Source of the DNA: a virus
Taxonomy: Duplodnaviria; Caudoviricetes
IMG/VR virus record: IMGVR_UViG_3300034196_000061
Coordinates: 1 to 60,045 of that record
Length of the DNA stretch: 60,045 nucleotides
Reading direction: 5' to 3' (one strand)
Every line of letters starts with the position of its first letter. Position 1 is the stretch's first letter. The translations under genes were made by a program, and so were the position numbers. Below, in pieces: positions 8,708-34,110 of this stretch. Below the pieces are notes generated by a model, which saw only the letters and a list, made by a program, of their open reading frames with translations, ran no database searches and was not told the DNA's origin.

Positions 8708-10399
8708 ATGGCGCTTGACCTTCCAGACACCGTTGAAGAGAGCCTAGAATTCTATCGGCACGTCGAGAAAGACGGTCCGCCAGCGGTCGCGCAGCTTGGG
8801 CGAAAGGACCTGTTTTACCTTTTGGCCATCCTGCTAAGACGCCCGGATGTCATGCACCCGTGGCTGTTCAAGAGATGCCGCGAGGTTCAAGAAAGTCCAG
8901 ACAACCACATCGACCTATGGAGCCGCGACCACTACAAGAGCTCGATAATTACGTTTGCTTTGACAATACAGAACATCCTCACCAACCCCGAGATCACGGT
9001 TGGGATTTTCTCGCACACCAGACCGATAGCAAAATCCTTTTTGGTCCAGATCAAGCGGGAGTTCGAAGATAACGAGCACCTGAAGGCTCTTTACCCCGAC
9101 GTGCTTTGGGCAAGCCCCATGAAGGACAGCCCCCGGTGGTCGGATGATATCGGGATCATCGTCAGGCGCGCGACGAACCCCAAGGAAAGCACGGTAGAAG
9201 CCTGGGGTCTGGTAGACGGGCAACCGACCGGAAAGCACTATTCGCACATGATTTACGATGACGTGGTGACGCGGGAGAGTGTCAGCACGCCGGAACAGGT
9301 CCAGAAGACGACAGCAGCTTTCGAGTTGAGCGACAACCTGGGAACCCAGGAAGGCGTGCGCCGGATCATCGGCACGAGATACAGTCTGCACGACACGTAC
9401 GCGACCATTCTCGAAAGACAGGTGGCCGAGCCGAGGATTCACCCGGCAACGCACAACGGAAGATTCAACGGCAAGCCCGTGTTCTTCAGCCAAGAGCTTT
9501 GGGAACGAAAATTAAAGGTGCAGTCAAAGAAAATCCTGGCGGCCCAGCTTCTGCAAAATCCGATGGCCGACGAAGCCGCGACGTTCCAAGCGGCATGGCT
9601 TAAAAGCTACGAGGTTCGGCCGAGGCTCTTGAACGTCTACATCATGTGCGATCCCAGCCGGGGTAGGACATCCGGGTCCGACAACACGGCGATGGCGGTG
9701 GTCGGCGTCGGCAGCGGCGGCAGCAAGTTCCTTCTCGACGGCGCCTGTCACCGCATGACGCTCAGTCAGCGGTGGACGACTCTGCGGGAGCTCCGGCGCA
9801 AATGGTCCGCCAAGCCGGGCGTGCAGCATATCGAAGTCGGGTATGAACGCTTTGGCGCGCAGTCCGATGACGAGTATTTCCAAGAGCAAATGGCGAAAAA
9901 CAAAGACTGGTTTCCGATCGAGGAACTTGCATGGCCGCGCGACGGCACAGAAAGCAAGAGAGAGCGTATCGAGCGCTTGGAGCCGGATTTCAGAAATGGG
10001 CGGTTCTATCTTCCGCTCCCGGTTCTGCGGGAAGGGAAGCCGTCAACATGGAAAATAAACAACGAGACTGAGGACGATCCCGACAACCCAGGGCGAAAGC
10101 TGCAAGGGATGAATTGGGGAAATCTGGAATATCGCAACGTGACCGGTGCAACCCGGGCGCAGATCGAAGCGATAGAGGGTGGATCGTCAGACCTGATAGC
10201 TCGGGCGATCAAGGTCATGGACGAAGAGCGCCACGTCTACGATCTGACTGTATGGTTCATGGACGAATACATACAGTTTCCATTTGGTCGTTGGCGGGAC
10301 ATGCTTGACGCTGTAAGCAGGATTTACGACATGGAACCACGACCGCCGCAGCTTACATCCAAAAGCGCAAGCGAGCCTCCGCTATTCTTTGACAGCTAA
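8708..10399 (+). CDS. terL: Terminase large subunit
   Basis: Walker A SRDHYKSS, TGKHY..MIYDD Walker B, IIGTRY, nuclease CDPS and FPFG..DMLDA motifs. Confidence 0.92.
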   Translation: MALDLPDTVEESLEFYRHVEKDGPPAVAQLGRKDLFYLLAILLRRPDVMHPWLFKRCREVQESPDNHIDLWSRDHYKSSIITFALTIQNILTNPEITVGIFSHTRPIAKSFLVQIKREFEDNEHLKALYPDVLWASPMKDSPRWSDDIGIIVRRATNPKESTVEAWGLVDGQPTGKHYSHMIYDDVVTRESVSTPEQVQKTTAAFELSDNLGTQEGVRRIIGTRYSLHDTYATILERQVAEPRIHPATHNGRFNGKPVFFSQELWERKLKVQSKKILAAQLLQNPMADEAATFQAAWLKSYEVRPRLLNVYIMCDPSRGRTSGSDNTAMAVVGVGSGGSKFLLDGACHRMTLSQRWTTLRELRRKWSAKPGVQHIEVGYERFGAQSDDEYFQEQMAKNKDWFPIEELAWPRDGTESKRERIERLEPDFRNGRFYLPLPVLREGKPSTWKINNETEDDPDNPGRKLQGMNWGNLEYRNVTGATRAQIEAIEGGSSDLIARAIKVMDEERHVYDLTVWFMDEYIQFPFGRWRDMLDAVSRIYDMEPRPPQLTSKSASEPPLFFDS

Positions 10400-10417
10400 C
10401 CAGCACGGGAGATCAGT

Positions 10418-10627
10418 ATGAGCGACACCGAAGGCACACCCGACGTTCCCGCCCCGGCGCCGGACCGTCCGCCGCAATACCCGTTCACGCCGCCAGTCGA
10501 GGGGACCGGTGAGCACCCATTGCCTGCCGGAGATGACACCCCGCCGGAAGATGGCGATGACGACAGCGAAGAGGGCGAAGAGGAAGAGGACGAAGAGACA
10601 CCTGAAGCTCCGGCGCCCTCGCCGTAG
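10418..10627 (+). CDS. Small acidic Pro-rich protein
   Basis: GGGAG RBS; begins MSDTEG like ORF 13581. Confidence 0.55.
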   Translation: MSDTEGTPDVPAPAPDRPPQYPFTPPVEGTGEHPLPAGDDTPPEDGDDDSEEGEEEEDEETPEAPAPSP

Positions 10628-10637
10628 TGAGCAAAAC

Positions 10638-10925
10638 ATGAGCGCGGCGCAAATTCGGAACTTCTCCGCGCTTTCGTACGCGCTCGGTTTTACCCTTTGG
10701 CGGTATCAAGCTGTTGACCACAGAGTAAAAGAAATGCTTGATGTGTCCTACTTCGATGATGCCAAAAACATGCTTCAGAAAGGGGACATGATTTTGGCCG
10801 GAGGATCGGACGGAGACGGAATATTTGTCGTGCAGGACATCAACAGTCGGCGAAAGCCGATCGTGCGCGTGTCGTGCATCTCGCTGGCCACCCTCTATCC
10901 TCCGCCGGCACAGGCGGTTGTCTGA
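10638..10925 (+). CDS. Hypothetical protein
   Basis: LSYALGFTLWRY...YFDDAKNML.KGDMI motif. Confidence 0.7.
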   Translation: MSAAQIRNFSALSYALGFTLWRYQAVDHRVKEMLDVSYFDDAKNMLQKGDMILAGGSDGDGIFVVQDINSRRKPIVRVSCISLATLYPPPAQAVV

Positions 10926-11166
10926 CGAGCCCGACGACGGGACAGAAGCTGCCGCTCCGCCGGAGCGTGCTGACGACGCTGCCGTGTTCCACGGCCATCT
11001 TTTCCAAAAAGAGGATGGCACCTGGGAGGGCGAATTGAGGGACCAATGGGGATGGGCGATTCCGATCACAGCAACCCGAGACAAAACTTGGGGAAACAAC
11101 CCTGCCCGCGTGATCCTCCGCGGCTTCTTGCCGGTGGATCGGCGAAGTGAGCGCATTCGGGATTGA
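10918..11166 (+). CDS. Hypothetical protein
   Basis: TTG start overlapping the previous stop region; GELRDQWGW motif. Confidence 0.5.
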   Translation: MSDEPDDGTEAAAPPERADDAAVFHGHLFQKEDGTWEGELRDQWGWAIPITATRDKTWGNNPARVILRGFLPVDRRSERIRD

Positions 11167-11317
11167 GCTTCGGTTTCACTGCGATTTTTGCGACAGCCGC
11201 GTCATCGTGGCGTGTCGCCCGGGGAGTGACGGCGAACGCCCGTGCGCGTGGTGCCGGGACCACTGGCCATGGCTGGCAACAGAGGACAAAGAAAATGCCG
11301 CGGTATCGGCCGACTGA
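11147..11317 (+). CDS. Small CxxC-CxxC zinc-binding protein (not in ORF track)
   Basis: GTG start; MSAFGIELRFHCDFCD...PCAWCRDHW, 56 aa, fills the gap between neighbours. Confidence 0.5.
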   Translation: MSAFGIELRFHCDFCDSRVIVACRPGSDGERPCAWCRDHWPWLATEDKENAAVSAD

Positions 11318-11489
11318 CGAAGACAGGGAGATTTCTGCAAAGCAGATGGCGAAGCGGAAAAAAGCTGGTGTGAGCTATCGGACCCTGGCGGCGGAGCACG
11401 GGACAAGCAAGAGCTCGGCGCACCGTGCCGTCAAGGGCGATACGGAGCCGATGCGTCAGGGCTTCAACAGGCTTGGTAGCGCAAAGTAG
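11295..11489 (+). CDS. Small HTH DNA-binding protein
   Basis: GVSYRTLAAEHGTSKSSAHRAVK helix-turn-helix. Confidence 0.65.
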   Translation: MPRYRPTDEDREISAKQMAKRKKAGVSYRTLAAEHGTSKSSAHRAVKGDTEPMRQGFNRLGSAK

Positions 11490-11575
11490 AAATATACATT
11501 CCAAGCTTTCTGCAAAATAACCTGCGAAATATTTGTACAACATGATAGCGTGCCCCAAGAACGAGGGGGCGCGCT

Positions 11576-12271
11576 ATGTCGTTTTCGTCTGGTGCAACCG
11601 GCAGCGTTGGGCAGGGCTCCGGGAGCCTCGTTGCTCCCGACTTCGGAAAGTGGAAGAGCCCGGGGGGATCAGCGTCGGCCGCGCTTGACACGCCCGGCGG
11701 CCCGCAACCGGCCGCGGGCTCCGGGGTGAGCTCGACCAGCACAAACAACAACGCCGGCCCGATGTCGGGCGGAAGCTCTGGCCCCCCTATCCTGCCGGTG
11801 CTGCCCTGGCGGCACGCGCCGGGCGGGCAAAACGCGGTCGGGGGCGGACCACCGCCCCAGGCGGGGGGAGCGGCGGCAGGCGCCGCTTTGTCCCCGCAAG
11901 CAACTGCAAACCTTGGACAATTTGCGCAGATGGTGGGCGGCGGCGGCGGGGCCGGCGCGATCAGCGGCGCGCAGATCGCAGCGATGTTGGCCGGGCAGGC
12001 ACCGGGCGCCGCGTCGACTCAGCCGACGCAGGCCCAGGTGGTCGCCGCGCTGCAAGGCGGGCAGGCAACGCCGGCCGCGTCCGGCCCGGCCGGGCCGGGC
12101 TCGGCCGCTCAGCCGCCCGGCGTCCAAATGACCCCGCAACAACTTTACGCAATCGCACAGATTTTGGGCGGCCAGGGGCAGCAACCCGGCGCTGCCGCGG
12201 TGGCCCCGACCATGCTCCGGCCTTCCGCGGCGGTCGCGCCGGCAGCGACGCCGCGACCGTCCGCGCAATGA
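11576..12271 (+). CDS. Gly/Ala/Gln/Pro-rich low-complexity protein, possibly virion internal
   Basis: GAGGGG RBS; ANLGQFAQM motif resembling neighbours. Confidence 0.6.
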   Translation: MSFSSGATGSVGQGSGSLVAPDFGKWKSPGGSASAALDTPGGPQPAAGSGVSSTSTNNNAGPMSGGSSGPPILPVLPWRHAPGGQNAVGGGPPPQAGGAAAGAALSPQATANLGQFAQMVGGGGGAGAISGAQIAAMLAGQAPGAASTQPTQAQVVAALQGGQATPAASGPAGPGSAAQPPGVQMTPQQLYAIAQILGGQGQQPGAAAVAPTMLRPSAAVAPAATPRPSAQ

Positions 12272-12288
12272 TCGCCGGGAGGTAAGCG

Positions 12289-13581
12289 ATGTCCGGTACG
12301 CAGGGCCAGGACGCGGACGGCAACCTCGCCGAATTCCTCCGGATGCTCAGCCCCGCGCCGCCGCAACCGACTCCCGGCTCGACCGGGCCGAGCTCGGCCG
12401 CGCCCGGCGGCAGCTTGCTCGGCGACGCTTGGCGCGATCTGAATGCCCGCCCCGGGCAAAGCCCGCTCGGCCAGCGGAACCCGCTTATTGACAACCCGGT
12501 GGGCACTCAGAGCCTGAGCGAGCAAAGCTTGGCCAACCCCGCCCCGGGCGGATTCTCGCCCGTCGTCGGGGAGCTCGGCGGCGTGCCGGCGACGCAACGC
12601 ACTCTTGATTCCTGGCACCAGGGCCAGTTGGCCGCGCTCAACTTCTCTCCGGCCAACATCATGGCCGGGCCGAACGCCCTCACGGCCAACATGGGCAAAC
12701 TCACCCGCGCCGCTGATCTTGAGAAAGCCGGAGCGACGCCGCACGACATATGGCAGCAGACTCAGTGGTTCCGTGGTGCCGATGGCGGATGGAGATTCGA
12801 AATTCCGGATACTGATGCGAAGATTTCTGCAAAAATTCCAAGGTTGTCTTCCACATCGCCAGACCAGAACGCGCAGCCTTTCATTTCCGCTACCGGACTT
12901 TCAGGAAAAACGCTCGGTCAGGTTGTCCTTCATCCAAATCTTTACGCAGCATATCCAGACCTAGCAAAAACACCAATGCAAACCGTTGGAGGACAAGAGG
13001 CGGCGGCCGGGCTTCGTGGGGCCATTTATCCGGACGGCTCTTTGGGACTCGCGACGGCACGTCAGGATGAGGCTATTTCTACAGCATTGCATGAGATACA
13101 GCATAAAATTCAGGACAAAGAAGGATTTGCACGCGGAGGAATGCCGCATGAATTCTATCCTCCGGGTCACGAAGATTATTACAATGCGTTAAAAAACACA
13201 GTAAACAATTTCGAAACAGATTACTTACGACAGCGCGGGCTTGATCCAATTTCTGTAAGGATAGCCCTCGAATATCAAGGGACTCCGCAGCTTACAGACT
13301 ATTTGAAAAACGTATTAGACGAAGCCCGAAAGGCTGTCGGATCGGACCAGTTGACATGGCATTCTGAAAACCTTGTCAGATTAGGTAAATTGCAGGGAAT
13401 TACAGATAATGCTTTCCAAAAATACAGATCGCTCATGGGAGAAACGGAATCAAGAAACGTACAGCGCCGCTTAGCCAATGACGACTATTCAGTCTTTCCA
13501 AGGTCCACAGAGAGCATTCCGGAAGAACAGCAAATTGCCGCCTTCCAAGGGAAGCCGGTTCCGAGAATTGGAGGTCCGTAG
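12289..13581 (+). CDS. Polyvalent-protein LPD23-like domain with HEXXH metallopeptidase motif
   Basis: WFRGADGGWRFEI, LHPNLYAAYPDL, LHEIQHKIQDKEGFARGG, Y..LMGETESRNVQRR. Confidence 0.75.
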   Translation: MSGTQGQDADGNLAEFLRMLSPAPPQPTPGSTGPSSAAPGGSLLGDAWRDLNARPGQSPLGQRNPLIDNPVGTQSLSEQSLANPAPGGFSPVVGELGGVPATQRTLDSWHQGQLAALNFSPANIMAGPNALTANMGKLTRAADLEKAGATPHDIWQQTQWFRGADGGWRFEIPDTDAKISAKIPRLSSTSPDQNAQPFISATGLSGKTLGQVVLHPNLYAAYPDLAKTPMQTVGGQEAAAGLRGAIYPDGSLGLATARQDEAISTALHEIQHKIQDKEGFARGGMPHEFYPPGHEDYYNALKNTVNNFETDYLRQRGLDPISVRIALEYQGTPQLTDYLKNVLDEARKAVGSDQLTWHSENLVRLGKLQGITDNAFQKYRSLMGETESRNVQRRLANDDYSVFPRSTESIPEEQQIAAFQGKPVPRIGGP

Positions 13582-15224
13582 TGTCAGATACAGAAGGCGC
13601 TCCGGCGCAAAATCCTGTTGTCGGACAAAACCTAGCTCAGTTCCTAAACCTGTCGCAGAGCGGCCTACCGTTCGAATGGCCGGAGCGGAATTCCTCTCTT
13701 CTTGGCCCCAGGAACCGCTTTATCGACAACCCGGTGGGCACTCAGAGCCTGAGCGAGCAAAGCCTGACGAATCCCGCTCCGGGCGGATTTTCGCCCGTCA
13801 TTGGCGATCTTGGCGGCGTGCCGGCGACAGGACCACAGATTGACAGGTTTTGGAGCCTTGCGTCAGAAGCCGCCGGAGCCAGCCCGATCACGGCGTATCA
13901 CGGCACGCCACATCTCTTCAGCGCTTTGGACAAAACCAAGATCGGAACAGGAGAAGGCGCGCAGGCTTACGGATATGGCCACTATAGCGCCGGAAATGAG
14001 GACATCGCGAGGGGATACCGAGACAAGCTGTCGCGTGGCGCAGACACTGCGTTTGCAGACTCGGCGGGGAACGTAGTCGGGCCTTGGCCTCCTGACATGA
14101 CAACGCCTCAAGGTTGGGCTTTAGATTTTCTTAATACATACAAAGGTGACTATAATATTGCGTCATCTCGTTTGTCCGATTCTATAGCCGAAGCGCAGAA
14201 ATACATACGTTCAATGTCTGGTTCTCCAAGCGCGCAACGCCTGATCGCTGAAATGCCTCTGAAGCAAGGCGCGATTGACGAACTGGCAAGAATGGAAGCG
14301 GCCGGCGTGAAGAGAAAGCCGCCGGGAAACATGTACGAAATGCGGCTTAACGTTGAGCCGCATCAGATGCTTGATTGGGACACGCCTCTTGCCGAGCACC
14401 ATCCGGAAGTACATGAAGCTTTGAAGCGTGCTGGCGTTCTGCCGGCCGACAATCCGTATCTGTGGCGCGAAATTCACGATCCAGGCGTGCCGGGTGAGAT
14501 CGGGCATGAACTTTATCACCGCGACGATCCGAGCAACGGTCTGGCAAGGCTTGGGGTCAAAATGCAGAAGATGCGGGATGGAACGACGATCCCGGCCGGT
14601 GACGCGGTGTTTGTCAACGGAAAGTCGATAGGAAGCGCATCTAGCGTCAACGAGATGAAGAGGATGGCTGAAGAGCGCGTTGTTCCGTGGGAAATTCGCA
14701 GTGGAATGGACAGGATTCGGGATACCGGAGAGCTAACATATAGGAACTTGGTTAGCAGACTCGATAACGAAGCCCATGCGAACGGCTATCCACCCCCAGG
14801 TTGGAACCCACACGCCGCCGCCGCTGAGAGACTTCGGGATGCCGGAATTCCAGGTATCCAATACTACGACGGATCAAGCCGAGCGGCGGCACGATCGCTC
14901 AAGCGCGACATCGCGAGACAGCAAGCCACGGTTGACAACTACACCGGGAAGATTGCTGATATACAAAGGCAGATTGACAATCCTCCATATGGAGCTCAAC
15001 CGGCATATGTCAGCAACCGGCAGGGGCAGATTGCTTCACTTCAAGCTACTTTGGAAAGCCAACAAGCTTACCTCGCGCAACTGAAATCCCCAAACTACCT
15101 AAGCCGCAATTACGTCATGTTCCCTGGAAATGAGCACTTGGTTGACATCCTCCGGCGCTACGCCGTTCCGGGGATGGTTGGCGCGGGAGCCGGAGCCGCG
15201 GCGGGCGGAACGCAACAGCAATAG
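13581..15224 (+). CDS. Polyvalent-protein ADP-ribosyltransferase-like (ART-PolyVal-type) protein
   Basis: AYHGTPH.F.....IGTGEGAQAYGYGHY...IARGYR, GNMYE, LDWD.PL, GIPGIQYYD..SR, RNYVMF. Confidence 0.7.
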   Translation: MSDTEGAPAQNPVVGQNLAQFLNLSQSGLPFEWPERNSSLLGPRNRFIDNPVGTQSLSEQSLTNPAPGGFSPVIGDLGGVPATGPQIDRFWSLASEAAGASPITAYHGTPHLFSALDKTKIGTGEGAQAYGYGHYSAGNEDIARGYRDKLSRGADTAFADSAGNVVGPWPPDMTTPQGWALDFLNTYKGDYNIASSRLSDSIAEAQKYIRSMSGSPSAQRLIAEMPLKQGAIDELARMEAAGVKRKPPGNMYEMRLNVEPHQMLDWDTPLAEHHPEVHEALKRAGVLPADNPYLWREIHDPGVPGEIGHELYHRDDPSNGLARLGVKMQKMRDGTTIPAGDAVFVNGKSIGSASSVNEMKRMAEERVVPWEIRSGMDRIRDTGELTYRNLVSRLDNEAHANGYPPPGWNPHAAAAERLRDAGIPGIQYYDGSSRAAARSLKRDIARQQATVDNYTGKIADIQRQIDNPPYGAQPAYVSNRQGQIASLQATLESQQAYLAQLKSPNYLSRNYVMFPGNEHLVDILRRYAVPGMVGAGAGAAAGGTQQQ

Positions 15225-15234
15225 GAGAAGCGAC

Positions 15235-15282
15235 ATGGGCAAATGCAAACCCGTCAAAAAGGGCAAGGATGACAAGAAGTAA
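15235..15282 (+). CDS. 15-aa basic micropeptide MGKCKPVKKGKDDKK
   Basis: AGGAG RBS; TAATG overlap with next gene. Confidence 0.5.
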   Translation: MGKCKPVKKGKDDKK

Positions 15283-15488
15283 TGGCAAAATCGTCAGGCG
15301 GAAGCTTCCGAGCTCCGCACTTGCCAAAGCCGGCGCCGATCAAGTCAGGCTCCGCCGGGCACGCCGGGGCACCGGTCGGATCGTCTGCCCACAAGGCGGC
15401 GCACGCCGGGTTCCGATCCAAGCTTGAGGAGATCGAGACAGATCGCGGCAGCTTCAGCTTCAAGAAAAACCGCGGAGGAAGAGACTGA
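15282..15488 (+). CDS. Small basic protein
   Basis: Coupled at both ends (TAATG, TGATG). Confidence 0.6.
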   Translation: MAKSSGGSFRAPHLPKPAPIKSGSAGHAGAPVGSSAHKAAHAGFRSKLEEIETDRGSFSFKKNRGGRD

Positions 15489-15658
15489 TGCCAAACACGA
15501 TACAGCCACCACCGACCCGCATTCTCAGTTTTCAACAAATGGTGACTGAGGCAGACCCCAACTGGTCCAAGGATAGACTGAAGTCAGTTGCTTACGAAAT
15601 GAGCAACGGACGGCAGTTTTTCTTCAACAATCAAACCTACACGACGACATCGACATGA
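15488..15658 (+). CDS. Hypothetical protein, 56 aa (not in ORF track)
   Basis: GGAGG RBS; MPNTIQPPP...YEMSNGRQF; coupled both sides. Confidence 0.6.
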   Translation: MPNTIQPPPTRILSFQQMVTEADPNWSKDRLKSVAYEMSNGRQFFFNNQTYTTTST

Positions 15659-16032
15659 TGGAAATAGATGTCCAATCCGAAGGCCCAACCGCGATGGCCG
15701 ACGAAGATGCCTGCCGGGCGGTCGGGGAGGATTTGCAGCAGGCGTACCCCGGATATCCATGGATGGTCGGGTGCGACCACACCGCCGGGCGACTCGTGAT
15801 TGACATTGCCCTGAAAAAGCCGTTCGGACTCGAAAACTACGCGTACGCTCTGCATCTCGCGACGGTGTTTGGCCCCGGAGGACAGGCCCGGGTTCGGCGA
15901 GCCGGCGGGGAGCTCTTGGAGCGCTTCGGGCTGCGCCGCGGGCACGCCGCACCAGACCATCGGCAGGAAGCCGCTTCCAACGGCCTGGACATTCACGAAG
16001 CGCTGTATCCCAAGAAAGGTCACACCACCTGA
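15655..16032 (+). CDS. Conserved pre-portal protein
   Basis: YPGYPWMV...VRRAGGELLERFGL; TGATG overlap with portal. Confidence 0.7.
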   Translation: MMEIDVQSEGPTAMADEDACRAVGEDLQQAYPGYPWMVGCDHTAGRLVIDIALKKPFGLENYAYALHLATVFGPGGQARVRRAGGELLERFGLRRGHAAPDHRQEAASNGLDIHEALYPKKGHTT

Positions 16033-18623
16033 TGCCGAGCTCCCGGCTCACGCCGCCATCAAACCAAGACGGCCGACACGGGCTGTCGTCGGCCGCCGCC
16101 TCGCGGTTTGACGCAGACGACGGCGGCGAAGAGCCCGGGATTCTCGACGCGGACACCGCGCGGAAGCTGGCAACCGACTGTTACGAGGCGTCAACCGATT
16201 GGCTCAACTCCGGGCGCCGGGCGGCTTGGAACAACAGCCTGAGAGCTTTTCAGAGCCTCCATCCGAGCGGCAGCAAGTACAACAGCCGCGAGTACGGATA
16301 TCGCAGCACCATGTACCGCCCGATCTCCAGGATGATAATCCGCCGGGCGGAGATGCAGACGGCGCAGGCTTTTTTTTCGAATGAGGACGTTGTTTCTATC
16401 AGGGCGCAAGACGACAACGACAAGAATCAGTTGGCAAGCGCCGAAATCAACAAGGCGCTCCTGCAATACAGACTGACGCATTCGATTCCCTGGTTCCTGA
16501 CGCTGATCGGTGCGCGGCAGGATTGCGAGATCATGGGGATTTGCTGTGCGAAAGCTTATTGGAAATACGAAGAGCAAGTAAGCCACACCGAAGATCGGCC
16601 GATTCTCGGTCCGGACGGTCTACCGCAGGCAGCGGAAGACGGCACGCTCCTGACGGAGCAAGTGGACATTATGAAGGCGATCCACGACAAGCCGGTGGTT
16701 GACCTCATAAGCCCCGAGAACATCCGATTTGAGCCGGGTTGCGACTGGCGCGATCCGGTTGGGTCAAGCCCGTACATCATTGAGTTAATGCCGATGTACA
16801 TAGGCGACGTGTTGACAAAGATGGAAAGCGGCGAGTGGCATTCTGTCTCTGAGTCAGCGCTGCGCGCGGCATCCGATCGAGACGACGACCAGACCCGCCG
16901 AAGCCGAGAAAGCGGACGTGTCCCGGGGAAGGACAAGGATTCATGGAAGCCAAAGGATTATGACATTTGCTGGGTCCGCGCCAACATCATCAAATGGAAT
17001 GGCCAGGACTGGCACTATTATACGCTGGCGGCATCGGGAGAAATCTTGACCGACCCTGTTCCGCTTCGTGATGTCTACTTGCACGGCGAGCGGCCGTATG
17101 TCATCGGCTTTACGATGATGGAGACGCATAAGACATACCCGAGCGGAAAGCTGGAAATGGTCCGCGATCTTCAGCGCGCCGCAAATGACATATGGAATAT
17201 GCGGTACGACAACTTGAAACTCAATTTGAACCCGCGGCAATTCATTCGGACAGGTGTTGCGACTGAGATTTCCGACGTGCGCAGCTTCGCGCCCGGAAAA
17301 GTCGTTGTCGTGAACACCAAACCGTCTGAGGACATGCGGAACGCGATCCAGTGGGATCGCCCGCCACCGATGGACGAAGCCGCTGCCTATCAGGAGCAGG
17401 ACCGCATAAATCTCGACACCGACCAACTGACAGGAGCGTTCACCAACTCGTCTGTCCAGGCATCGCAGCTTCAGCAGCAGAGCGCGACCGGAATGCACCT
17501 GATGTCCGGCGAGGCTTCCGGACTCAACGAATACGAGCTCCGGTGTTTCGCCGAAACATTCGTGGAAAAGCTTGTCAGGCTCTTGATGAAGCTTGAACAG
17601 GCGTACGAGGTTGACCCTGTTATTTTGGCCATTGCCGGGAAGAACAGCCAAATCTATCAGAAATACGGCATCAACGAGATCACCGACGCGCTGATTGAGG
17701 GGGAGCTTACCACGAAAGTCAACGTCGGCGTTGGCGCCAGCAACCCACAGATGCGCTTGAAAAACTTCATAGCTGGCGCCGACATCCTTGGCAAAATCTT
17801 TGGCCCAGCAGCGGCGACCGGTGCGAATTTTCCCGAAGTTGCGAAAGAGGTTTTCGGAATGCTCGGGTATTCCGACGGTTCCCGTTTTTTCAATCCGGAA
17901 TTCGATCCCCGCGTGGAGATTTTGCAAAAGCAACTCGACAAGGCCAAGGGCGCCGGAGGGAAGGGCGGCCCGACCGACCAGGGCAAGATACAGTCAGCGC
18001 AAATCCAGGCCCAGGCGCATCTTCAGGCCGCCCAAACAAAGGCACAGGCCGACGTGCAGATGACGGCGATGGAAGCGCAAGCGAAGCAGCAACAGATGTC
18101 CGTGGACCAATGGAAAACGATGTTCAAGGGGGCCAGCGACAACGCGATGGTGGAGGCGCAGCTTGCGCACTCAGGACAGCAGCAAAGGATAGATCGCGGG
18201 CATGACGCGGCGATGCAACACAACGAGATAGTGCATCAAGCCGCGATCAAGGGGGTGGGGGACGATAACGGGAACGTATCGGCGCGAACCCCCACACAGG
18301 GGGTTGTGGCTGGCCCTCGGGCTACACAACCCCCTGCTTCTGAAGATTCGTCAATGTCGTCAGTCGTGCAAATTCTTGCCGCTCTTACGAGCGGGATACA
18401 GCAAGGAAATGCACAGTTGGCAGCAGCAATCACCGAAAACACGCGGCAGATGACTCAGGCTCTAGCTGCCGTCGTGCGGGAGACGAATGCTCCCGTCATG
18501 CAGTCGATGGCCCACCTTGCGCAGTCGCACGCCAATATGGCGTCGGCATTGAGCGCGAGGCGCCGCTTGATTCGCGGGCCGGACGGGAGAGCGGAGGGTG
18601 TGGAGATCGTTGACACGAGATGA
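16032..18623 (+). CDS. Portal protein (podovirus type) with long Gln/Ala coiled-coil C-terminus
   Basis: 863 aa, position after terL, ISPENIRFEP, DLQRAANDIWN, SATGMHLM motifs. Confidence 0.88.
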   Translation: MPSSRLTPPSNQDGRHGLSSAAASRFDADDGGEEPGILDADTARKLATDCYEASTDWLNSGRRAAWNNSLRAFQSLHPSGSKYNSREYGYRSTMYRPISRMIIRRAEMQTAQAFFSNEDVVSIRAQDDNDKNQLASAEINKALLQYRLTHSIPWFLTLIGARQDCEIMGICCAKAYWKYEEQVSHTEDRPILGPDGLPQAAEDGTLLTEQVDIMKAIHDKPVVDLISPENIRFEPGCDWRDPVGSSPYIIELMPMYIGDVLTKMESGEWHSVSESALRAASDRDDDQTRRSRESGRVPGKDKDSWKPKDYDICWVRANIIKWNGQDWHYYTLAASGEILTDPVPLRDVYLHGERPYVIGFTMMETHKTYPSGKLEMVRDLQRAANDIWNMRYDNLKLNLNPRQFIRTGVATEISDVRSFAPGKVVVVNTKPSEDMRNAIQWDRPPPMDEAAAYQEQDRINLDTDQLTGAFTNSSVQASQLQQQSATGMHLMSGEASGLNEYELRCFAETFVEKLVRLLMKLEQAYEVDPVILAIAGKNSQIYQKYGINEITDALIEGELTTKVNVGVGASNPQMRLKNFIAGADILGKIFGPAAATGANFPEVAKEVFGMLGYSDGSRFFNPEFDPRVEILQKQLDKAKGAGGKGGPTDQGKIQSAQIQAQAHLQAAQTKAQADVQMTAMEAQAKQQQMSVDQWKTMFKGASDNAMVEAQLAHSGQQQRIDRGHDAAMQHNEIVHQAAIKGVGDDNGNVSARTPTQGVVAGPRATQPPASEDSSMSSVVQILAALTSGIQQGNAQLAAAITENTRQMTQALAAVVRETNAPVMQSMAHLAQSHANMASALSARRRLIRGPDGRAEGVEIVDTR

Positions 18624-21209: not shown

Positions 21210-21530
21210 ATGGAACTGTCGCAAGAGCAAATAGACGAGATCAAAGCGCGCGACGATCGTTTTCGTGCGGTTGACACTGCTTTGCAGCTTGCTTCAGAGC
21301 TAACAAAGGGAAGAGGGCTTGACATATTTGTTGAAGCTCTTTCGTCGGATGCTATCCGCGCCATGGAATTGTTCGCGGAAACAAGCCCAAGCGATTTGGA
21401 AGAAATTATGAAGCTGCAAGTTGTTGTTCGGACCTATATCCGATCTCGCGACATCTTCAACGCAGTGCTGGCGGTCGGGCGAAACGCGGAAGCGGACCTA
21501 CGGGCCAATGACATGGAGGACTCCGAGTGA
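21210..21530 (+). CDS. Hypothetical head-module protein
   Basis: 106 aa helical protein coupled to the scaffold gene. Confidence 0.7.
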   Translation: MELSQEQIDEIKARDDRFRAVDTALQLASELTKGRGLDIFVEALSSDAIRAMELFAETSPSDLEEIMKLQVVVRTYIRSRDIFNAVLAVGRNAEADLRANDMEDSE

Positions 21531-22687
21531 CGACAGATATTGAAGTCCAAACGACGAACCAACTGACGCCGGACGAGCCGGGCGGCCCGATTGCGTCGCC
21601 GCCGCCGGCCCCACCCCCTGCGCCGGATGGGCAGGAAGACGAGGCGCGCGAGCGTGCCAGAAGCCCACGCGAAGACGCCATGATCCGGATCGCCGAGCGT
21701 CGGGCGGAGGCTTTGGCCCGCGAGATCGCGTACGGCGAATCGATCGGGCTCCCGTCCAACGAGGCGACCGACGACGAGCCGGCGGCGCGGCGCGAGGCGG
21801 GCGACCCGAACACGCCGCACGGCACGCCGGCCGAGCCCGCCCGCCCCCAGGCGGCGCCCGCGGCCCCGACCTCGGCGCCGCCGCCGGAAGCGCAGCAACC
21901 CCAGCTTTTCCCGTTCGATCCGGGCAACGGCAACACGATTCTGGTGACGGCTGACCAACTAGTACAGCTTGCCCGAGACGGCGCCGCGGCGCGGCTTGCG
22001 GTGCAGCAGTACCAGCAGCAGGGCCAGCAACCGGGGCAGCAACAGCCGTCCGCACAGCAGCAACAGGCTCTGGCGGCTCAGCAGCAGCAAGCGGCGATCG
22101 ACCAGCAGCGCAGCGCTGAGTACTTCCGCCGGCTCACGTTCGGCGACGCCGAAGAGGGCGGCCGGGCGCTGCAAGAGTTTGCGGGGGACCTGCTTGCCCG
22201 GTCGCGACAGTTGGCCCCCGACCCGCGCCAGATCGCGCAATTTGCGACGCAACAAGCAATGCAGGCGATAAACCTAGAGCGTAATCTAAATACGCTGGCG
22301 TCCGAATACACCGACATCTTCGAAGATCGCGGTCTATCACAGTTGGCCGCCATAAAAGTTGGTGAGCTCCGCCAGCAGTATGCTATGCAAGGCGTTCAAA
22401 GAGGGGATTTGGACCTCTACCGCGACGCTTGCTCCGTGGTCCGCAAGACGATCCAGCGCGGACAGGAGCCGGCGAACGGCAAGGCGCCCCCGGCAGACAC
22501 CGCCTCTCAGGCGGCGCCCGCTGTCGCGGATAACACGCGAAAGTTGGAGCGCAAGCGAGCGGCCCCGGCTCAACCAACGGCAGTAAGCCGTGTTGCGTCC
22601 GACGAAAGCGCAAAGCCCTGGGAAGGGAATCGAAGCGCAGTAGTCGATCGGATGAGGGCGCTACGCGGCCAGCCAAGCATGAGGTAA
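21527..22687 (+). CDS. Putative capsid scaffolding protein
   Basis: Acidic/Pro/Gln-rich, directly before MCP, basic C-terminal VVDRMRALRGQ. Confidence 0.7.
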   Translation: MTTDIEVQTTNQLTPDEPGGPIASPPPAPPPAPDGQEDEARERARSPREDAMIRIAERRAEALAREIAYGESIGLPSNEATDDEPAARREAGDPNTPHGTPAEPARPQAAPAAPTSAPPPEAQQPQLFPFDPGNGNTILVTADQLVQLARDGAAARLAVQQYQQQGQQPGQQQPSAQQQQALAAQQQQAAIDQQRSAEYFRRLTFGDAEEGGRALQEFAGDLLARSRQLAPDPRQIAQFATQQAMQAINLERNLNTLASEYTDIFEDRGLSQLAAIKVGELRQQYAMQGVQRGDLDLYRDACSVVRKTIQRGQEPANGKAPPADTASQAAPAVADNTRKLERKRAAPAQPTAVSRVASDESAKPWEGNRSAVVDRMRALRGQPSMR

Positions 22688-22695
22688 TTTTCGTA

Positions 22696-23682
22696 ATGGC
22701 CGGACAACTCTGGTCGGTGAACACGCTCGGCGGGTTTATGTACTCGCTTGAGCTTTCCGATCTTCTTCGAACCGCTGTGCAACCTCTTTGTAAGTATCGC
22801 CAGTTTTGCGATGCAAAAGATTTCACTGACAAAGGGCTTCACAAGGGCCAGTTGTTCACTTGGAACGTTTACAACGACGTTGCAACCGGCGGGACTTCAC
22901 TCACCGAGACAACGACAATCCCGCTCACCAACTACACGATTGCTCAAGGCACCGGAACGGTATTCGAATACGGAAATAGTGTTCCGTATACCGAGTTGCT
23001 GGATAACTTGAGCAAGCATCCCGTTCAAGAGATCATCAACAAAGTTCTCAAGAACGATTGCAAAAAAGCGCTCGACGATCAGGCGTGGTCGCAGTTTTGG
23101 GCAACGCCCCTGAAGGCTGTTGGAACTGGTGGACAGGCCAACACCGTCATTGCTTTGACCACGAACGGCACAGCAACCGGCACCAACTCGTCGGCGCTGG
23201 GAAAGGCGGCTCTGAAGCTACTTGTCGATCTTATGAAAGAGCGCAACATCCCAGCCTATATGGGCGACGAATACTTTGGGATTGCTTGGCCGACGACTTG
23301 GCGACCTCTGAAGAATGATCTGGAATCTGTATACCAATACAGAGACGAAGGTTTCCAGATGATTTACAACGGGGAGATCGGGAAGTTTGAAGGTGTTCGT
23401 TTCATCGAGCAAACGAACGTGTTCAAGGGGCGGTATACCAGCGGCGCCTATCAGGTTCCAGGCAGCTTCACGGCCTGGACTTCCGGACTTTCCGACAATG
23501 CGTTTTTTTTCGGTGAAGATACTGTTGCCGAAGCCATCGTTGTCCCGGAGGAAATGCGCGGCATGATCCCGCAGGACTTTGGCCGGAGCAAAGGTATTGC
23601 GTGGTACTATCTTGGAGGATTCGCGTTGACGCAGACCCAGGCGTCTCAGGCGCGTATCGTCCACTGGACCTCGGCGGCATAG
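22696..23682 (+). CDS. Major capsid protein (N4-gp56-like family)
   Basis: LSDLLRTAVQPLCKYRQF, EYGNSVPYT, GEIGKFEGVRFIE, DFGRSKGIAWYYLGGF. Confidence 0.88.
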   Translation: MAGQLWSVNTLGGFMYSLELSDLLRTAVQPLCKYRQFCDAKDFTDKGLHKGQLFTWNVYNDVATGGTSLTETTTIPLTNYTIAQGTGTVFEYGNSVPYTELLDNLSKHPVQEIINKVLKNDCKKALDDQAWSQFWATPLKAVGTGGQANTVIALTTNGTATGTNSSALGKAALKLLVDLMKERNIPAYMGDEYFGIAWPTTWRPLKNDLESVYQYRDEGFQMIYNGEIGKFEGVRFIEQTNVFKGRYTSGAYQVPGSFTAWTSGLSDNAFFFGEDTVAEAIVVPEEMRGMIPQDFGRSKGIAWYYLGGFALTQTQASQARIVHWTSAA

Positions 23683-24929: not shown

Positions 24930-25355
24930 ATGCTCGACAAAACGCTTCCGCACGGCGAAGTCGTGGGCTTCGGTTTTCGCGTCTACTCTCAGGGCGGACA
25001 CCACTACGACAGCACCGGCAGACGCGTACGGGTGCTCCCTGGCCAAATAGTGGACGGGGAGCAAACGTACGTCTGTGAGTGCATCGAAGTTGAGCCCGTA
25101 CGCCCGGAGGACCGGAAGTATCCCTATCCGGACGTGCCGGGGGAGGCGGCTGCGCCGCTATCTTTCAAGGGGTGCCTCGGCACGCCGGGTGAGCCCGCGG
25201 ACCCGGCGGCGCCGGTTGAGCATAGTTGGGGTATGCTCAATGACGAAGTTCTGAAATCTGCCCTCGTGACGTACGGCGAGAAATGGACCGATCGCGACGA
25301 CGCCATAAACTTTCTTGAATCTCAGGGCAGGAAATCGAATGACGTGGACACCTGA
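24930..25355 (+). CDS. Hypothetical protein
   Basis: LDKTLPHGEV.G....YSQGGHHYD motif. Confidence 0.65.
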   Translation: MLDKTLPHGEVVGFGFRVYSQGGHHYDSTGRRVRVLPGQIVDGEQTYVCECIEVEPVRPEDRKYPYPDVPGEAAAPLSFKGCLGTPGEPADPAAPVEHSWGMLNDEVLKSALVTYGEKWTDRDDAINFLESQGRKSNDVDT

Positions 25356-26937
25356 AACAAGCCGCGGATACGAAAGCGCCAAGATCGCGGCTGTCTCGGT
25401 ACCCTATCTCCAAGGCACATTCGTAGACCTCGGGTGCGGCACCGACAAGGTTTGGCCATCGGCTATCGGGATCGACTCCGGCAAAGCCTATGGAGTGGCT
25501 TCTGATATCGTCGCGGACATCGCCGATCTGTCGATATTCGCGACGGGCTCCATGGACGCGGTGTTCTCTTCTCATGCCTTGGAGGATTTCGACAGATCGG
25601 CGGTGCCGCGCGTGCTTGAAGAGTGGGCGCGAATCCTTCGGGTTGGCGGAAACCTCGTTCTGTACGTGCCATCGGCAAATCTCTACCCTCGAAAGGGCGA
25701 GCCTGGGGCGAACAAGGCGCACAAGTGGGATATATACCCCGGAGAGATAGAAGAAATACTAAAACAGGTGAATTGGGGAGACTGGACGCTTCTCGAAAGT
25801 GAAGAGCGCAGCGGGACAAACGAGTATTCGCTTTTCATCGTTGCGCGCAAGATGGCCCCCGGATCGGGATGGCGGGAAAACGTCTGGCAGCGGAACCCGG
25901 GCGGAAAGAAGCGCGCACTGGTCATCCGGTATGGCGCTGCGATCGGCGACATGATGATTGCGAGCTCCATTCTCCCGGGGCTACAGCGCAAAGGATACCA
26001 CGTCACCTTCAACACAACCCCGACCGGCCGCGACTTGCTGTTGCACGATCCACACGTAGACGAGTGGATCATTCAGGACCGGGATTTTGTCCCAAACCCG
26101 CAACTCGGGCCATATTGGGAAGCTCTCGGCGACAGGTTCGATCAGGTCATAAATCTCTGCGAAAGCATCGAAGGAACCTACCTGACGATTGCCGGCCGGA
26201 TTGCAAACCGACACTCTCCGGAAGCTCGGCGGAGGCTCTTGAGCAGCGCGAACTATCTTGAGATCACGCACGACATCGCCGACGTGCCGTATGAGTTTGC
26301 CAGTCGGTTTTATCCGACCGACGAAGAGCGCGCTTGGGCTCTGGACCGGCGCGCGGAGATCGCGGCTCCGGTCATCGCGTGGGTGCTGCACGGCTCGGCC
26401 ATGCACAAGGCGAGCCCGCACATTCAACACGTCGTCTCGTGGCTGTTGCAGCGCTCCCCGTGCGAGGTCGTGCTTTTGGGCGACCGCTCGATTGGATCGA
26501 AGCTGGCGGCCGGGATTATCTCCAAGGTCGGGGAATCCGCGCCCGGGGAGATACACCGAATCCGCAACATGGCAGGGGAGCAGTGGACCCGCCGGCAGGC
26601 TCTTGCGTTTTCCCAGGTCGCCGACTGCGTTGTTGGCCCGGAGACGGGGATTCTCAATGCCGTAGCGCTAGAGATGATGCCCAAGGTCGTGTACCTATCG
26701 CATAGCTCTCGGGACAACTTGACGCGGACCTGGGTGAACACCACGGCGCTTGCGCCGCCATCATCCGCGGCTCCCTGCTACCCGTGCCACATGATGCACC
26801 AAGACTGGTCAACCTGCCATCAGGACCCCGAGACGGGCGCGGCGCTGTGCGCGGCCGGCGTGACCCCGATGGCTCTCTTTGCCGCCATTGCCACAGCGTT
26901 GGGGGCCGTGCGCTGCCGGGATGTCGCCGCCGAGTAA
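25339..26937 (+). CDS. Class I SAM methyltransferase fused to GT9 (heptosyltransferase-like) glycosyltransferase
   Basis: VDLGCG, MDAVFSSHALED, EWARILRVGGNL; then ALVIRYGAAIGDMMIAS, VVGPETGILNA, CYPCH..C..C cluster. Confidence 0.85.
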   Translation: MTWTPETSRGYESAKIAAVSVPYLQGTFVDLGCGTDKVWPSAIGIDSGKAYGVASDIVADIADLSIFATGSMDAVFSSHALEDFDRSAVPRVLEEWARILRVGGNLVLYVPSANLYPRKGEPGANKAHKWDIYPGEIEEILKQVNWGDWTLLESEERSGTNEYSLFIVARKMAPGSGWRENVWQRNPGGKKRALVIRYGAAIGDMMIASSILPGLQRKGYHVTFNTTPTGRDLLLHDPHVDEWIIQDRDFVPNPQLGPYWEALGDRFDQVINLCESIEGTYLTIAGRIANRHSPEARRRLLSSANYLEITHDIADVPYEFASRFYPTDEERAWALDRRAEIAAPVIAWVLHGSAMHKASPHIQHVVSWLLQRSPCEVVLLGDRSIGSKLAAGIISKVGESAPGEIHRIRNMAGEQWTRRQALAFSQVADCVVGPETGILNAVALEMMPKVVYLSHSSRDNLTRTWVNTTALAPPSSAAPCYPCHMMHQDWSTCHQDPETGAALCAAGVTPMALFAAIATALGAVRCRDVAAE

Positions 26938-31017: not shown

Positions 31018-32253
31018 ATGAGCGGGACACTACAGGCGCCGCAGCCGGGCCAGCAGCTACCCCCGGAGGTTTTGGCCGCTCTGCTACAGGGCCGCGGTGG
31101 CTTTGGTGGTCAGGCCCCGCCGGGCGGCGGCCCGGCACCGGGCGGTGCACCACCCCAGGGCGGAGCTCCCGGCGGCAGGCCCCCGATTCCCCTTGGCCCC
31201 CCTCCGGGCGGACCTTCGCCGGGTGGCCCCTCTGGAATGCCGCCGGGCGGCCCGGCCCAAGGCGCTCCCCCAGGCGCTGGCGGCCCGCCACCGATGCCGG
31301 GTCCGGCGCCAGGACCCCCGCCCGGGGCAGGGCAAATCCCCGCAAACTTGGCCATGTTCGCCCGCGGCACCGTGCCCGTGCCAGGGGCGGCGCAGGGCGG
31401 GCAGATGTTCAATCCCGCCGAAATCGCAGCGATGGGCCGCAACGGGGATTCGATCGTCGCCCACCTGACGCCCGGGGAAATCACGATCCCGCCGCAGCTT
31501 CAGAACCCACGCTTGTTGGCCGAGCTCTCGCGCCACTTTCAACGGCATGGCGTTGACCTTGCACAGTTCACCGCGGGCTCTCCGGCGTCGTCGCCAAACC
31601 CCGAGACAGGGGCTCCGCAATACAACTTCATGTCCGCTCTCCTGCCGACGTTGCTTGGGATCGGCGGCGGCGTGATCGGGTCCGCGATCGGCGGCCCGAT
31701 GGGCGGCATGGCGGGCGCAAGCCTGGGATCGGGCGGCGGCACCGCGTTGACTGGTGGCAACGCCCAGCAGTCCCTTTTGTCCGGCCTTGGCAGCGGGCTT
31801 GGGTACGGCGTCGGCACCGGCTCTTTGGGCGATATCCTCGGCGGAGGCGCCGCAACCGGCGTTGCCCAAGCGAGCCCCGGGGTGTCGGCCGGCATGGCGA
31901 ACGCGCTCGGGCCGCAATCTCTCGGCTCCGCTGCGGCCAATGCCGCGCCAGCAACCGCCAGCGCGGGCGGGCTGGCGTCCGATTCACTTGGAAGTCAGTT
32001 GTCCAACGCTTGGAACACCAAGGGCGCGCTCGGGACAGCGTTCGGCGCAAACCTGGGTTACGCCCTCGCTGCGCCGACTGAAGCAAAGGCCGATACGAGC
32101 GCGATGACCGGGCACATGCCCGCAGTCAACAGCACCGGAGGATACAACGCCCGCCTCGGGAATTTCGGCACGTCAACAACCCCGACGTTCAACGGCTACG
32201 ACCCGCAGGCTGCGATGCAAGGTGGCGGCTATCGGTTTTTCAAGACAGCCTGA
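31018..32253 (+). CDS. Internal virion / DNA ejection protein
   Basis: GRNGDSIVAHLTPGE...NPETGAPQY followed by Gly-rich membrane-like segment. Confidence 0.75.
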   Translation: MSGTLQAPQPGQQLPPEVLAALLQGRGGFGGQAPPGGGPAPGGAPPQGGAPGGRPPIPLGPPPGGPSPGGPSGMPPGGPAQGAPPGAGGPPPMPGPAPGPPPGAGQIPANLAMFARGTVPVPGAAQGGQMFNPAEIAAMGRNGDSIVAHLTPGEITIPPQLQNPRLLAELSRHFQRHGVDLAQFTAGSPASSPNPETGAPQYNFMSALLPTLLGIGGGVIGSAIGGPMGGMAGASLGSGGGTALTGGNAQQSLLSGLGSGLGYGVGTGSLGDILGGGAATGVAQASPGVSAGMANALGPQSLGSAAANAAPATASAGGLASDSLGSQLSNAWNTKGALGTAFGANLGYALAAPTEAKADTSAMTGHMPAVNSTGGYNARLGNFGTSTTPTFNGYDPQAAMQGGGYRFFKTA

Positions 32254-32262
32254 AGATTTTCC

Positions 32263-34106: not shown

Positions 34107-34110
34107 TGCC

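Follow-up and report, generated by a model that had tools for sequence, protein, structure and literature searches.

Two adjacent genes with one leader and different payloads

IMGVR_UViG_3300034196_000061 is a linear IMG/VR record of 60,045 bases, analysed here at its full length and called the window. By gene content it is a tailed phage, with helicase and primase genes on the minus strand, and CheckV estimates it to be 66% complete. Our subject is a pair of adjacent genes, A and B (Table 1), whose products begin with a common peptide, hereafter the leader, and continue into different payloads: an LPD23 domain with a predicted zincin metallopeptidase in A, and a predicted ADP-ribosyltransferase (ART) of the ART-PolyVal family in B. 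Both genes, and the one that precedes them at 11576-12271, lie inside the 5.6-kb interval between the terminase large subunit gene (terL) and the portal gene. An earlier note on this DNA had placed them there, and matches of the two flanking products to phrog_38 and SU10_portal bear this out.

What exactly do A and B share? At the DNA level, a direct repeat of 128 nt (12466-12593 versus 13701-13828; 85% identity) has sharp edges, identity changing abruptly at ~12465 and ~12595. It contains an exact identity of 39 nt (12490-12528 = 13725-13763), the longest exact repeat within 11400-15400; 50 shuffles of the region yielded at most 14 nt. At the protein level, BLASTP aligns the two leaders at E 1e-20, with 74% identity over a 53-residue segment and 33/36 identical residues in a core whose consensus reads IDNPVGTQSLSEQSL(A/T)NPAPGGFSPV(V/I)G(E/D)LGGVPAT. 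Upstream of this core, both proteins begin with MS.T.G and have NLA(E/Q)FL. The 60-kb record holds these two leader copies only. Gene A is chimeric in composition: GC content and GC content at third codon positions (GC3) are 0.718 and 0.845 in its leader and 0.507 and 0.486 in its payload, at a window average of 0.599. So sharp a contrast is as expected for a recombinational join. The earlier note had described a segment of ~40 residues common to the open reading frames (ORFs) starting at 12289 and 13581, its 39 identical nt, the NLA(E/Q)FL before it and the greater AT richness of the payload of A; all four descriptions hold, the coordinates included.

The repeat does not look recent. Within the 36-codon core, A and B are separated by 10 synonymous and 3 conservative non-synonymous differences, which translates into a synonymous divergence (dS) of 0.47, a non-synonymous divergence (dN) of 0.039 and a dN/dS of 0.08. 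The duplication thus has some age, and purifying selection has acted on the peptide in both copies. All 13 nucleotide differences of the 108-nt core fall outside the 39-nt identical tract. Under a uniform dS, such an arrangement has a chance of ~1% by a hand estimate, which suggests a gene-conversion patch on an older duplication. RNA structure was considered as a cause of the identical tract and rejected (z = -0.26 and +1.19).

The leader is a family that crosses payload boundaries

The leader is not confined to this phage. When 1.84 billion representative proteins were searched with a 53-column profile of the A and B cores, 11 matched at E<=1e-3. The motif lies near the N-terminus in seven of them (A, P0003, P0006, P0007, P0009, P0010 and P0011); three were rejected as repeat or low-complexity artefacts, and the remaining match, P0004, was left unclassified. 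A leader-alignment search through a word index returned 14 matches. Scanning IMG/VR for DNA encoding DNPVGTE (the ...TE form only, without ...TQ) marked 69 loci, 31 of which hold a leader ORF by an iterated hidden Markov model (HMM), the other 38 being chance matches. As we define the family, a member has an N-terminal core, DNPVGT(Q/E), after which come P.PG.(D/S)PV, P(V/M)T and then an unrelated payload; A and B belong to it, matching the leader HMM at E 1e-32 to 1e-34. The consensus, …P(P)R(N/D)x(F/Y)xDNPVGT(E/Q)xLxxxxL(T)NPxPG(I/F)(D/S)PV(V/I)G…G.P(V/M)T(A/Q)xQ…, is accompanied by a second, longer subtype, …DNPVGTETLQSMGMPQPT.YAGPVGQ…. The 36-residue core sits in a conserved stretch of ~55-85 residues that is Pro/Gly-rich and apparently unstructured, and in 15 full-length members a short hydrophobic or acidic helix precedes the core by 10-40 residues; NLA(E/Q)FL is this element in A and B. 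In all members seen, the leader is N-terminal.

Which proteins follow it? The iterated HMM marks 42 distinct collected sequences, a few of them truncated copies of the same gene: 14 with an ART, 11 with DUF7178, four with a zincin and 13 others, four of which match Pfam DUF7178 weakly. Relative to the collected payload families, whose samples are biased by the manner of collection, leaders occur in 14/72 ART, 4/99 zincin and 11/72 DUF7178 proteins. Clusters of leaders at >=60% identity mix payloads (the largest comprises five ART, three DUF7178 and one other protein), and only in 11/31 cases does the nearest leader precede the same payload. The leaders of A and B are mutually nearest (71% identity over the profile columns), closer to one another than B's is to that of P0003, the closest full-length relative of B. 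Likewise, P0010, an ART, and P0018, a DUF7178 protein, have a common extended N-terminus. Together, these observations indicate that leaders follow phage lineages rather than payloads. The data thus support the view, drawn from sequence comparison, of a leader that recurs as an N-terminal module under selection on at least three unrelated payload families (ART-PolyVal-like, LPD23-zincin and DUF7178) and on proteins without a known family. This list is the outcome of searching the leader by itself, as the earlier note had advised, and the one-off duplication restricted to this genome that the note had named among the findings that would refute its proposal is not what we see. Its picture of a modular cassette with swappable effectors fares less evenly: leader subtypes do cut across payloads, but the typical phage has one leader gene rather than a cassette.

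Members of each of the three payload families are also found within giant polyvalent proteins or internal virion proteins. Residues 123-290 of A match PHROG families of giant proteins, and a 3120-residue open frame in OP947163 (Rhodobacteraceae phage LS06-2018-MD07) combines ART and DUF7178 and has no leader, in agreement with the earlier remark that such domains usually reside in giant polyvalent proteins. DUF7178, too, is a polyvalent-protein domain.

The leader has no counterpart in Pfam (E<=10), NCBIfam or PADLOC, and the strings DNPVGT, NPVGTE and NPVGTQ do not occur in the searchable literature. A protein atlas queried with the B leader gave sub-threshold leads only (<=0.85), the nearest named one being P22 gp16 at 0.79, a level that is often chance; the same atlas gave no usable match to the payload of P0007, and a PDB sequence search with a DUF7178 protein found nothing. 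A metagenome scan with P0010 missed the contigs of P0010, P0013 and P0018. The longest contigs of P0013 and P0018 are equal in length (45,486), as are those of P0007 and P0009 (5,039), so that the members of each pair may be neighbours.

Two further observations concern the make-up of such N-termini. On a contig from a metagenome-assembled genome (MAG), an ART homologue (L254, 2272-2973) has the second leader half only (…FDPVVGRGLPVTRGQLAGI…) and no DNPVGT; the leader may consist of two separable sub-motifs. In another phage (L141, 23-3787; L115, 10380-12693), a different short motif, K(F/Y)NPNHDERGRF (KFNPNHDERGRF), stands at or close to the start of three neighbouring gene products and also between the domains of a fused protein with ART and HEIEH. 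It is a second, unrelated type of leader or linker for the same kind of cargo.

A and B resemble the two halves of a fused protein

LPD23 is identified with confidence in A (67 bits against a gathering cutoff of 27; E 1.2e-18), and the HEIQH motif that the earlier note had seen alongside an LPD23-like domain lies further downstream. In a 39-sequence alignment of the A family, drawn from 97 homologues of the payload, H215, H268, E269, H272, E385 and E387 are invariant, so that the family has both elements of a zincin-like metallopeptidase, HExxH and a conserved downstream Glu. We read these residues as a predicted gluzincin-type signature. As described in the available portion of PMC5512222, the phage-type zincin metallopeptidase of polyvalent proteins has a ‘conserved His at the end of strand 2’, which H215 fits. 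Among curated peptidase models, Pfam returned no match to A at E<=10 besides a chance-level one to C53, and a PDB profile search with the family alignment yielded IrrE at E 0.42 only.

Gene B starts with a GTG that overlaps the stop codon of A by one base and has a Shine-Dalgarno sequence of its own. Among the aligned members of its family, 33/36 match ART-PolyVal at E<=0.01 (best E 7.4e-22). H107, Y135 and D430 are invariant in the 36-sequence alignment, and with strands assigned by sequence pattern they correspond to the H-Y-D configuration of polyvalent-protein ARTs, that is, His in strand 1, Tyr in strand 2 and Asp in strand 5 (PMC5512222, in the portion available). We assign B to the ART-PolyVal family as a probable member and a predicted ADP-ribosyltransferase. 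In its C-terminal half, the ART domain is matched by ‘structural protein P5’ and by internal virion proteins from phages of the Autographiviridae; a PDB sequence search with the B family alignment found nothing. The family also has a hydrophobic, Gly/Ala-rich C-terminal tail (…ILR(K/R)YG(I/V)AG…GG.AA…), which is kept with or without a leader and in fusions, for example at L005 (2998-3852).

Are A and B independent genes that happen to be neighbours? Among the A homologues, 8/97 have ART-PolyVal and LPD23 Pfam domains in one protein. In three fusions (P0049, P0069 and P0032), a zincin at the N-terminal end is followed by a B-type ART with its tail at the C-terminal end (E 1e-59 to 1e-89 with the B-family profile), a domain order equal to the gene order A then B. 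The C-terminus of A (…IPEEQQIAAFQGKP…) aligns with a segment of P0032 (…IPEEQQIVRYGDGP…) that leads straight into the ‘YHGSPH’ strand of the ART. Relative to these fusions, the junction in the window adds a stop codon, the overlapping GTG start with its Shine-Dalgarno sequence and a leader of ~100 residues. Since LPD23, zincin and ART are fused in the same order in other phages, A|B would be the same arrangement split in two, a second leader standing at the junction. The pair is thus best read as a split LPD23-zincin-ART fusion. Polyvalent proteins are characterised by 2-15 effector domains per polypeptide, and neither product qualifies, B having one enzymatic domain and A an LPD23 domain plus a zincin; the pair appears to work like an unbundled polyvalent protein without being one.

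Leader genes cluster beside portal genes

In five further genomes, three of them >=99% complete, there is exactly one leader motif match each, and in 5/5 the leader gene stands directly after the portal gene or one gene off, upstream of the coat gene. Four have a portal of the P22 type and one has a portal of the SU10 type; by gene order, L011 is laid out likewise. More broadly, a same-strand portal homologue lies within +-2 kb at 16/31 leader loci versus 0/38 loci with the DNA pattern only (Fisher p = 1.6e-7). At 3/16 the portal gene is downstream of the leader gene, as in the window. The same slot can hold ART homologues without a leader, as in L005 and L007 (by gene order) and in gp5 of Sulfitobacter phage phiGT1. 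The closest relative that we found, G001, has 64,293 bases, is 100% complete by CheckV, has a head protein 78% identical to that of the window (terL and portal identities in Table 1) and encodes homologues of the small flanking genes at window positions 11163 and 15655.

Two side observations come from these surroundings. Directly upstream of the G001 portal gene and overlapping it is an ORF of 242 residues with repeated basic motifs (L152, 9280-10008), absent from the window, which by eye looks like a homing-endonuclease-type insertion. At L093 (7259-9556), two adjacent tail-fibre-like genes are 67% identical over their first 90 residues and then diverge; we take them as a virion anchor common to both N-termini and followed by variable C-termini, a familiar pattern that offers a helpful parallel to the leader.

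What might the leader do?

We propose, with a probability of roughly 50%, that A and B are an accessory effector pair, a split zincin-ART in which each half has a portable leader that docks it in the procapsid for injection. The block at 11576-15224 would be an accessory module in the variable terL-portal slot of an uncultured podovirus-like phage with an SU10-type portal and ejection-protein genes. As a docking peptide, made up of a short hydrophobic helix and then DNPVGT(Q/E)...P.PG.(D/S)PV...P(V/M)T, the leader would bind a procapsid component at or near the portal, either the portal itself or the scaffold, for which the product of 21527-22687 is a candidate. The enzyme behind it would be built into the head in few copies and would leave the particle together with the DNA on infection. 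After delivery, the ART would modify host or defence targets; the part of the zincin would be to process cargo or to attack host proteins. If the leader serves in targeting or docking, each polypeptide should have one of its own. The repeat and the selection on it, the identity of the domains, the modularity of the family and the linkage to portal genes are observed, and from them we infer procapsid binding, packaging, ejection and the enzymatic activities; routing to the capsid is suggested by gene position and by analogy with MuF fusions and polyvalent proteins, both discussed below. Published work (PMC5512222 and PMC9503650, in the portions available) likewise infers packaging and injection for ARTs and polyvalent domains whose genes adjoin those of the terminase and the portal.

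More tentatively, and with some doubt on our part, the DNPVGT leader may be a self-sufficient, portable ‘load-me’ tag of podoviruses whose portals are of the P22 or SU10 type. Whichever protein is placed behind it would be docked at the portal vertex of the procapsid and co-injected with the DNA; payloads would be shuffled, the leader would be duplicated when a fused effector splits, and the related NL(A/G)xF might mark resident ejection proteins.

Several findings weigh against docking and injection. The main observation awkward for a specific portal or coat interface is that a single leader subtype is shared by genomes with P22_portal and with SU10_portal genes and with differing coats (P22_CoatProtein three times, Phage_capsid_3 once, none once), which argues against a tightly co-evolving partner of either kind. 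At 15/31 leader loci, there is no portal homologue within +-2 kb, although flanks were short and a single portal profile was used. G001 has no leader, no A and no B, and other small ORFs fill its terL-portal interval; the module is therefore accessory and dispensable for virion assembly. Pfam detects no prohead protease family among 15 window proteins, which leaves a T4-style cleaved targeting sequence without an obvious protease other than A. Among ART homologues on contigs from bacterial genomes and MAGs, 0/80 have the leader. Lastly, the ART-PolyVal-like payload that the earlier note had recognised in B is borne out by its relatives and by the invariant H-Y-D, but B alone scores 18.1 bits against PF18760, below the cutoff of 31.2.

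Could the leader be a processing element instead? It might supply a cleavage site or an inhibitory pro-segment for the zincin of A or for another protease, matching the inter-domain linkers of fused polyvalent proteins and keeping the enzymes inactive until release. The B leader does sit exactly at the inter-domain junction of the fused LPD23-zincin-ART proteins, the linker of P0049 contains ‘RPVGTVEQ’, reminiscent of NPVGTE, and the K(F/Y)NPNHDERGRF motif likewise both heads the products of three neighbouring genes and lies within a fused ART-HExxH protein. Zincin metallopeptidases have moreover been proposed to process polyvalent proteins (Iyer et al., available portion of PMC5512222). However, most leader phages examined have a single leader protein, an ART or a DUF7178 protein, and no zincin nearby, so that the function of the leader cannot depend on A; and in the members seen it is N-terminal, never internal. 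We therefore regard a processing role as unlikely. It would also be compatible with docking, given that the T4 targeting sequence both targets and is cleaved.

Alternatively, A and B might not be packaged at all and might act as late cytoplasmic enzymes on phage or host proteins during assembly, the leader tethering them to a shared assembly factor. Gene position proves only co-transcription with the head genes, and a promoter and terminator scan of 10300-16200 gave counts at or below the shuffle means, with no signal above background between the block and its neighbours. This possibility seems improbable, however, given that the three payload families recur in giant virion-associated or polyvalent proteins and that the published reading of such contexts is packaging (PMC5512222 and PMC9503650, as far as available).

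Quite improbable, too, is that the leader acts after ejection, as a linear motif in a disordered N-terminus that binds a conserved host factor or envelope component for envelope crossing or for target aiming. The Tol/Ton boxes in the translocation domains of colicins offer an analogy. A Pro/Gly-rich, seemingly unstructured region with a short invariant motif would suit such a role, and the same subtype across different portal and coat families is as expected for a host-side partner. Yet a host partner leaves the tight, directional linkage to portal genes unexplained, the leader has no signal-like segment, and the count of 0/80 in bacterial and MAG contigs speaks against it as well. Hardly credible, finally, is that illegitimate recombination or duplication in this one genome left A and B with a common segment that has no function: there are only two copies in the record, the payload of A is foreign in composition and the closest relative is without the block, but a dN/dS of ~0.08 at a dS of 0.47 and the N-terminal motif in dozens of proteins of other phages, with different payloads, already contradict it.

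Relation to known loading systems

Outside T4, P22 and T7, to our knowledge, little is understood of how podoviruses select the proteins that are enclosed with the genome. In T4, a short N-terminal peptide on unrelated internal proteins directs prohead entry, the cargo including the ADP-ribosyltransferase Alt; this capsid targeting sequence of ~10-20 residues binds the scaffolding core and is removed by the prohead protease. The leader resembles it as a short N-terminal peptide common to unrelated proteins, with an ADP-ribosyltransferase among the cargo, and differs in that no prohead protease is detected here, there is no sequence similarity and the phage is of another type. Cargo-loading peptides of encapsulins are mostly C-terminal, bind the shell interior and suffice for loading into an HK97-fold shell, with neither portal nor ejection being involved. 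Here, the likeness is an analogy only: a short conserved peptide with a flexible Pro/Gly/Ala linker on unrelated enzymes encoded beside shell genes.

MuF fusions (SPP1 gp7/Mu gp30; PMC5576092, PMC5512222 and PMC9503650), among them the MuF polymorphic toxins, likewise have a conserved N-terminal module, encoded beside the portal gene, ahead of variable C-terminal enzymes that include ARTs; their payloads, too, are exchanged among phages, and loading of the effectors into the head for injection is proposed. In contrast to the folded MuF domain, the leader is far shorter, Pro/Gly-rich and apparently unstructured, and is found with P22- and SU10-type portal genes in podovirus-like genomes. No MuF domain was detected in A or B by Pfam at E<=10, in the relatives scanned at E<=0.01 or in seven proteins compared with NCBIfam. 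With polyvalent proteins (Iyer et al. 2017, available portion of PMC5512222), the locus has in common the ART-PolyVal H-Y-D, LPD23, the HExxH zincin metallopeptidase and, as found here, DUF7178, besides the terminase/portal context and the reading as packaged, early-acting effectors. The difference is that these domains here occupy separate small genes, each with its own leader, whereas the giant fused forms examined have none; the portion of PMC5512222 that was available does not mention the leader.

The best-supported reading is by analogy: the leader may work like a MuF fusion or like the T4 targeting sequence, as a member of neither. Three elements are new: the leader as such, the combinations into which it enters and the fact that it is duplicated at a fission point. 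If the proposal is true, the leader would provide a sequence handle for injected effectors, such as anti-defence or host-takeover enzymes, in metagenomic phages, and might serve as a means of loading cargo into phage heads. Read as a split fusion, the locus is also a concrete case of polyvalent effectors unbundled into genes, with the leader duplicated at the break, and illustrates how a modular arsenal evolves.

Neighbouring genes and minor observations

Table 1. Positions of the two leader genes, their parts and the surrounding landmarks in the window.
Feature	Position	Strand	Remarks
terL, terminase large subunit	8708..10399	+	phrog_38, E 1.4e-45; 59% identity to G001 terL; marks the upstream side of the variable slot
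First gene of the accessory block, 231 residues	11576..12271	+	Low complexity, Ala/Gly/Pro-rich; ANLGQF at residue 112
Gene A: leader, LPD23 and HExxH zincin (predicted metallopeptidase), 430 residues	12289..13581	+	
NLAEF, within the N-terminal hydrophobic helix of leader A, residues 12-16	12322..12336	+	
Leader core of A, IDNPVGTQSLSEQSLANPAPGGFSPVVGELGGVPAT	12487..12594	+	Within repeat copy 12466-12593
LPD23 domain of A, residues 124-179	12658..12825	+	PF18838
HEIQH, predicted zinc-binding/catalytic motif of A, residues 268-272	13090..13104	+	
GETE of A with invariant E385 and E387	13438-13449		Downstream of HEIQH
Gene B: leader, ART-PolyVal-family domain, large insert and Gly/Ala-rich C-terminal tail, 547 residues	13581..15224	+	
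NLAQF, within the N-terminal helix of leader B, residues 17-21	13629..13643	+	
Leader core of B, IDNPVGTQSLSEQSLTNPAPGGFSPVIGDLGGVPAT	13722..13829	+	Within repeat copy 13701-13828
Predicted ART triad span of B	13899..14870	+	H107 13899-13901; Y135 13983-13985; D430 14868-14870
Conserved C-terminal tail of the ART family, ILRRYAVPGMVGAGAGAAAGGTQQQ	15147..15221	+	
Portal protein, SU10 type; candidate docking partner	16032..18623	+	SU10_portal PF23899, E 3.2e-39; 54% identity to G001 portal
Major head protein	22696-23682		Tail genes, then ejection cluster downstream

The gene that opens the block, at 11576, has a GAGGGGG Shine-Dalgarno sequence upstream, and its frame has the highest GC at third and the lowest at second codon positions; 49 Ala, 44 Gly and 29 Pro make up much of its 231 residues. 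The protein has no family match in Pfam, PHROG, NCBIfam or PADLOC and no homologue in G001. As a leader-bearing gene it was rejected for want of a DNPVGT core. A DNA search of the whole block against 50,697 phage records returned no match.

According to the earlier note, an NLxxF motif akin to that of the leader recurs at 11576 and in the ejection protein at 31018. ANLGQF and ANLAMF are indeed present there. A run of ‘DNA ejection protein’ genes occupies 31018-38886, and NL[AGS]xF, a motif defined after the fact, occurs six times in 87 gene-like ORFs versus 0.46 expected, a count reached in 0/2000 shuffles, with the proviso that A and B are not mutually independent. All six sites lie in 11576, A, B and the ejection-cluster genes 31018, 32715 and 34111 (the latter three at window positions 31345, 34020 and 34198 on the plus strand, in 31018-32253, 32715-34106 and 34111-36534); the sites in 32715 and 34111 are additional to those in the note. 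In the G001 orthologues, however, the motif is conserved in that of 34111, degraded in that of 32715 and deleted in that of 31018, hence kept in 1/3 only. The extension to ejection proteins is statistically suggestive, a lead rather than a finding.

Two more genes of the window deserve mention. Directly 3′ of terL, an ORF of 69 residues (10418-10627, plus strand) has its own Shine-Dalgarno sequence, no family match and a strongly acidic, Asp/Glu-rich tail; its N-terminus, MSDTEGTP, resembles the MSDTEGAP of B in different codons, which could reflect a common extreme N-terminal signal or a chance match. Further downstream, tail genes also follow the major head protein gene, and a protein of 540 residues is encoded in the middle of the structural module (25315-26937, plus strand); it matches Methyltransf_11 at E 9e-8, is 54% identical to its G001 orthologue and may be a virion-associated methyltransferase.

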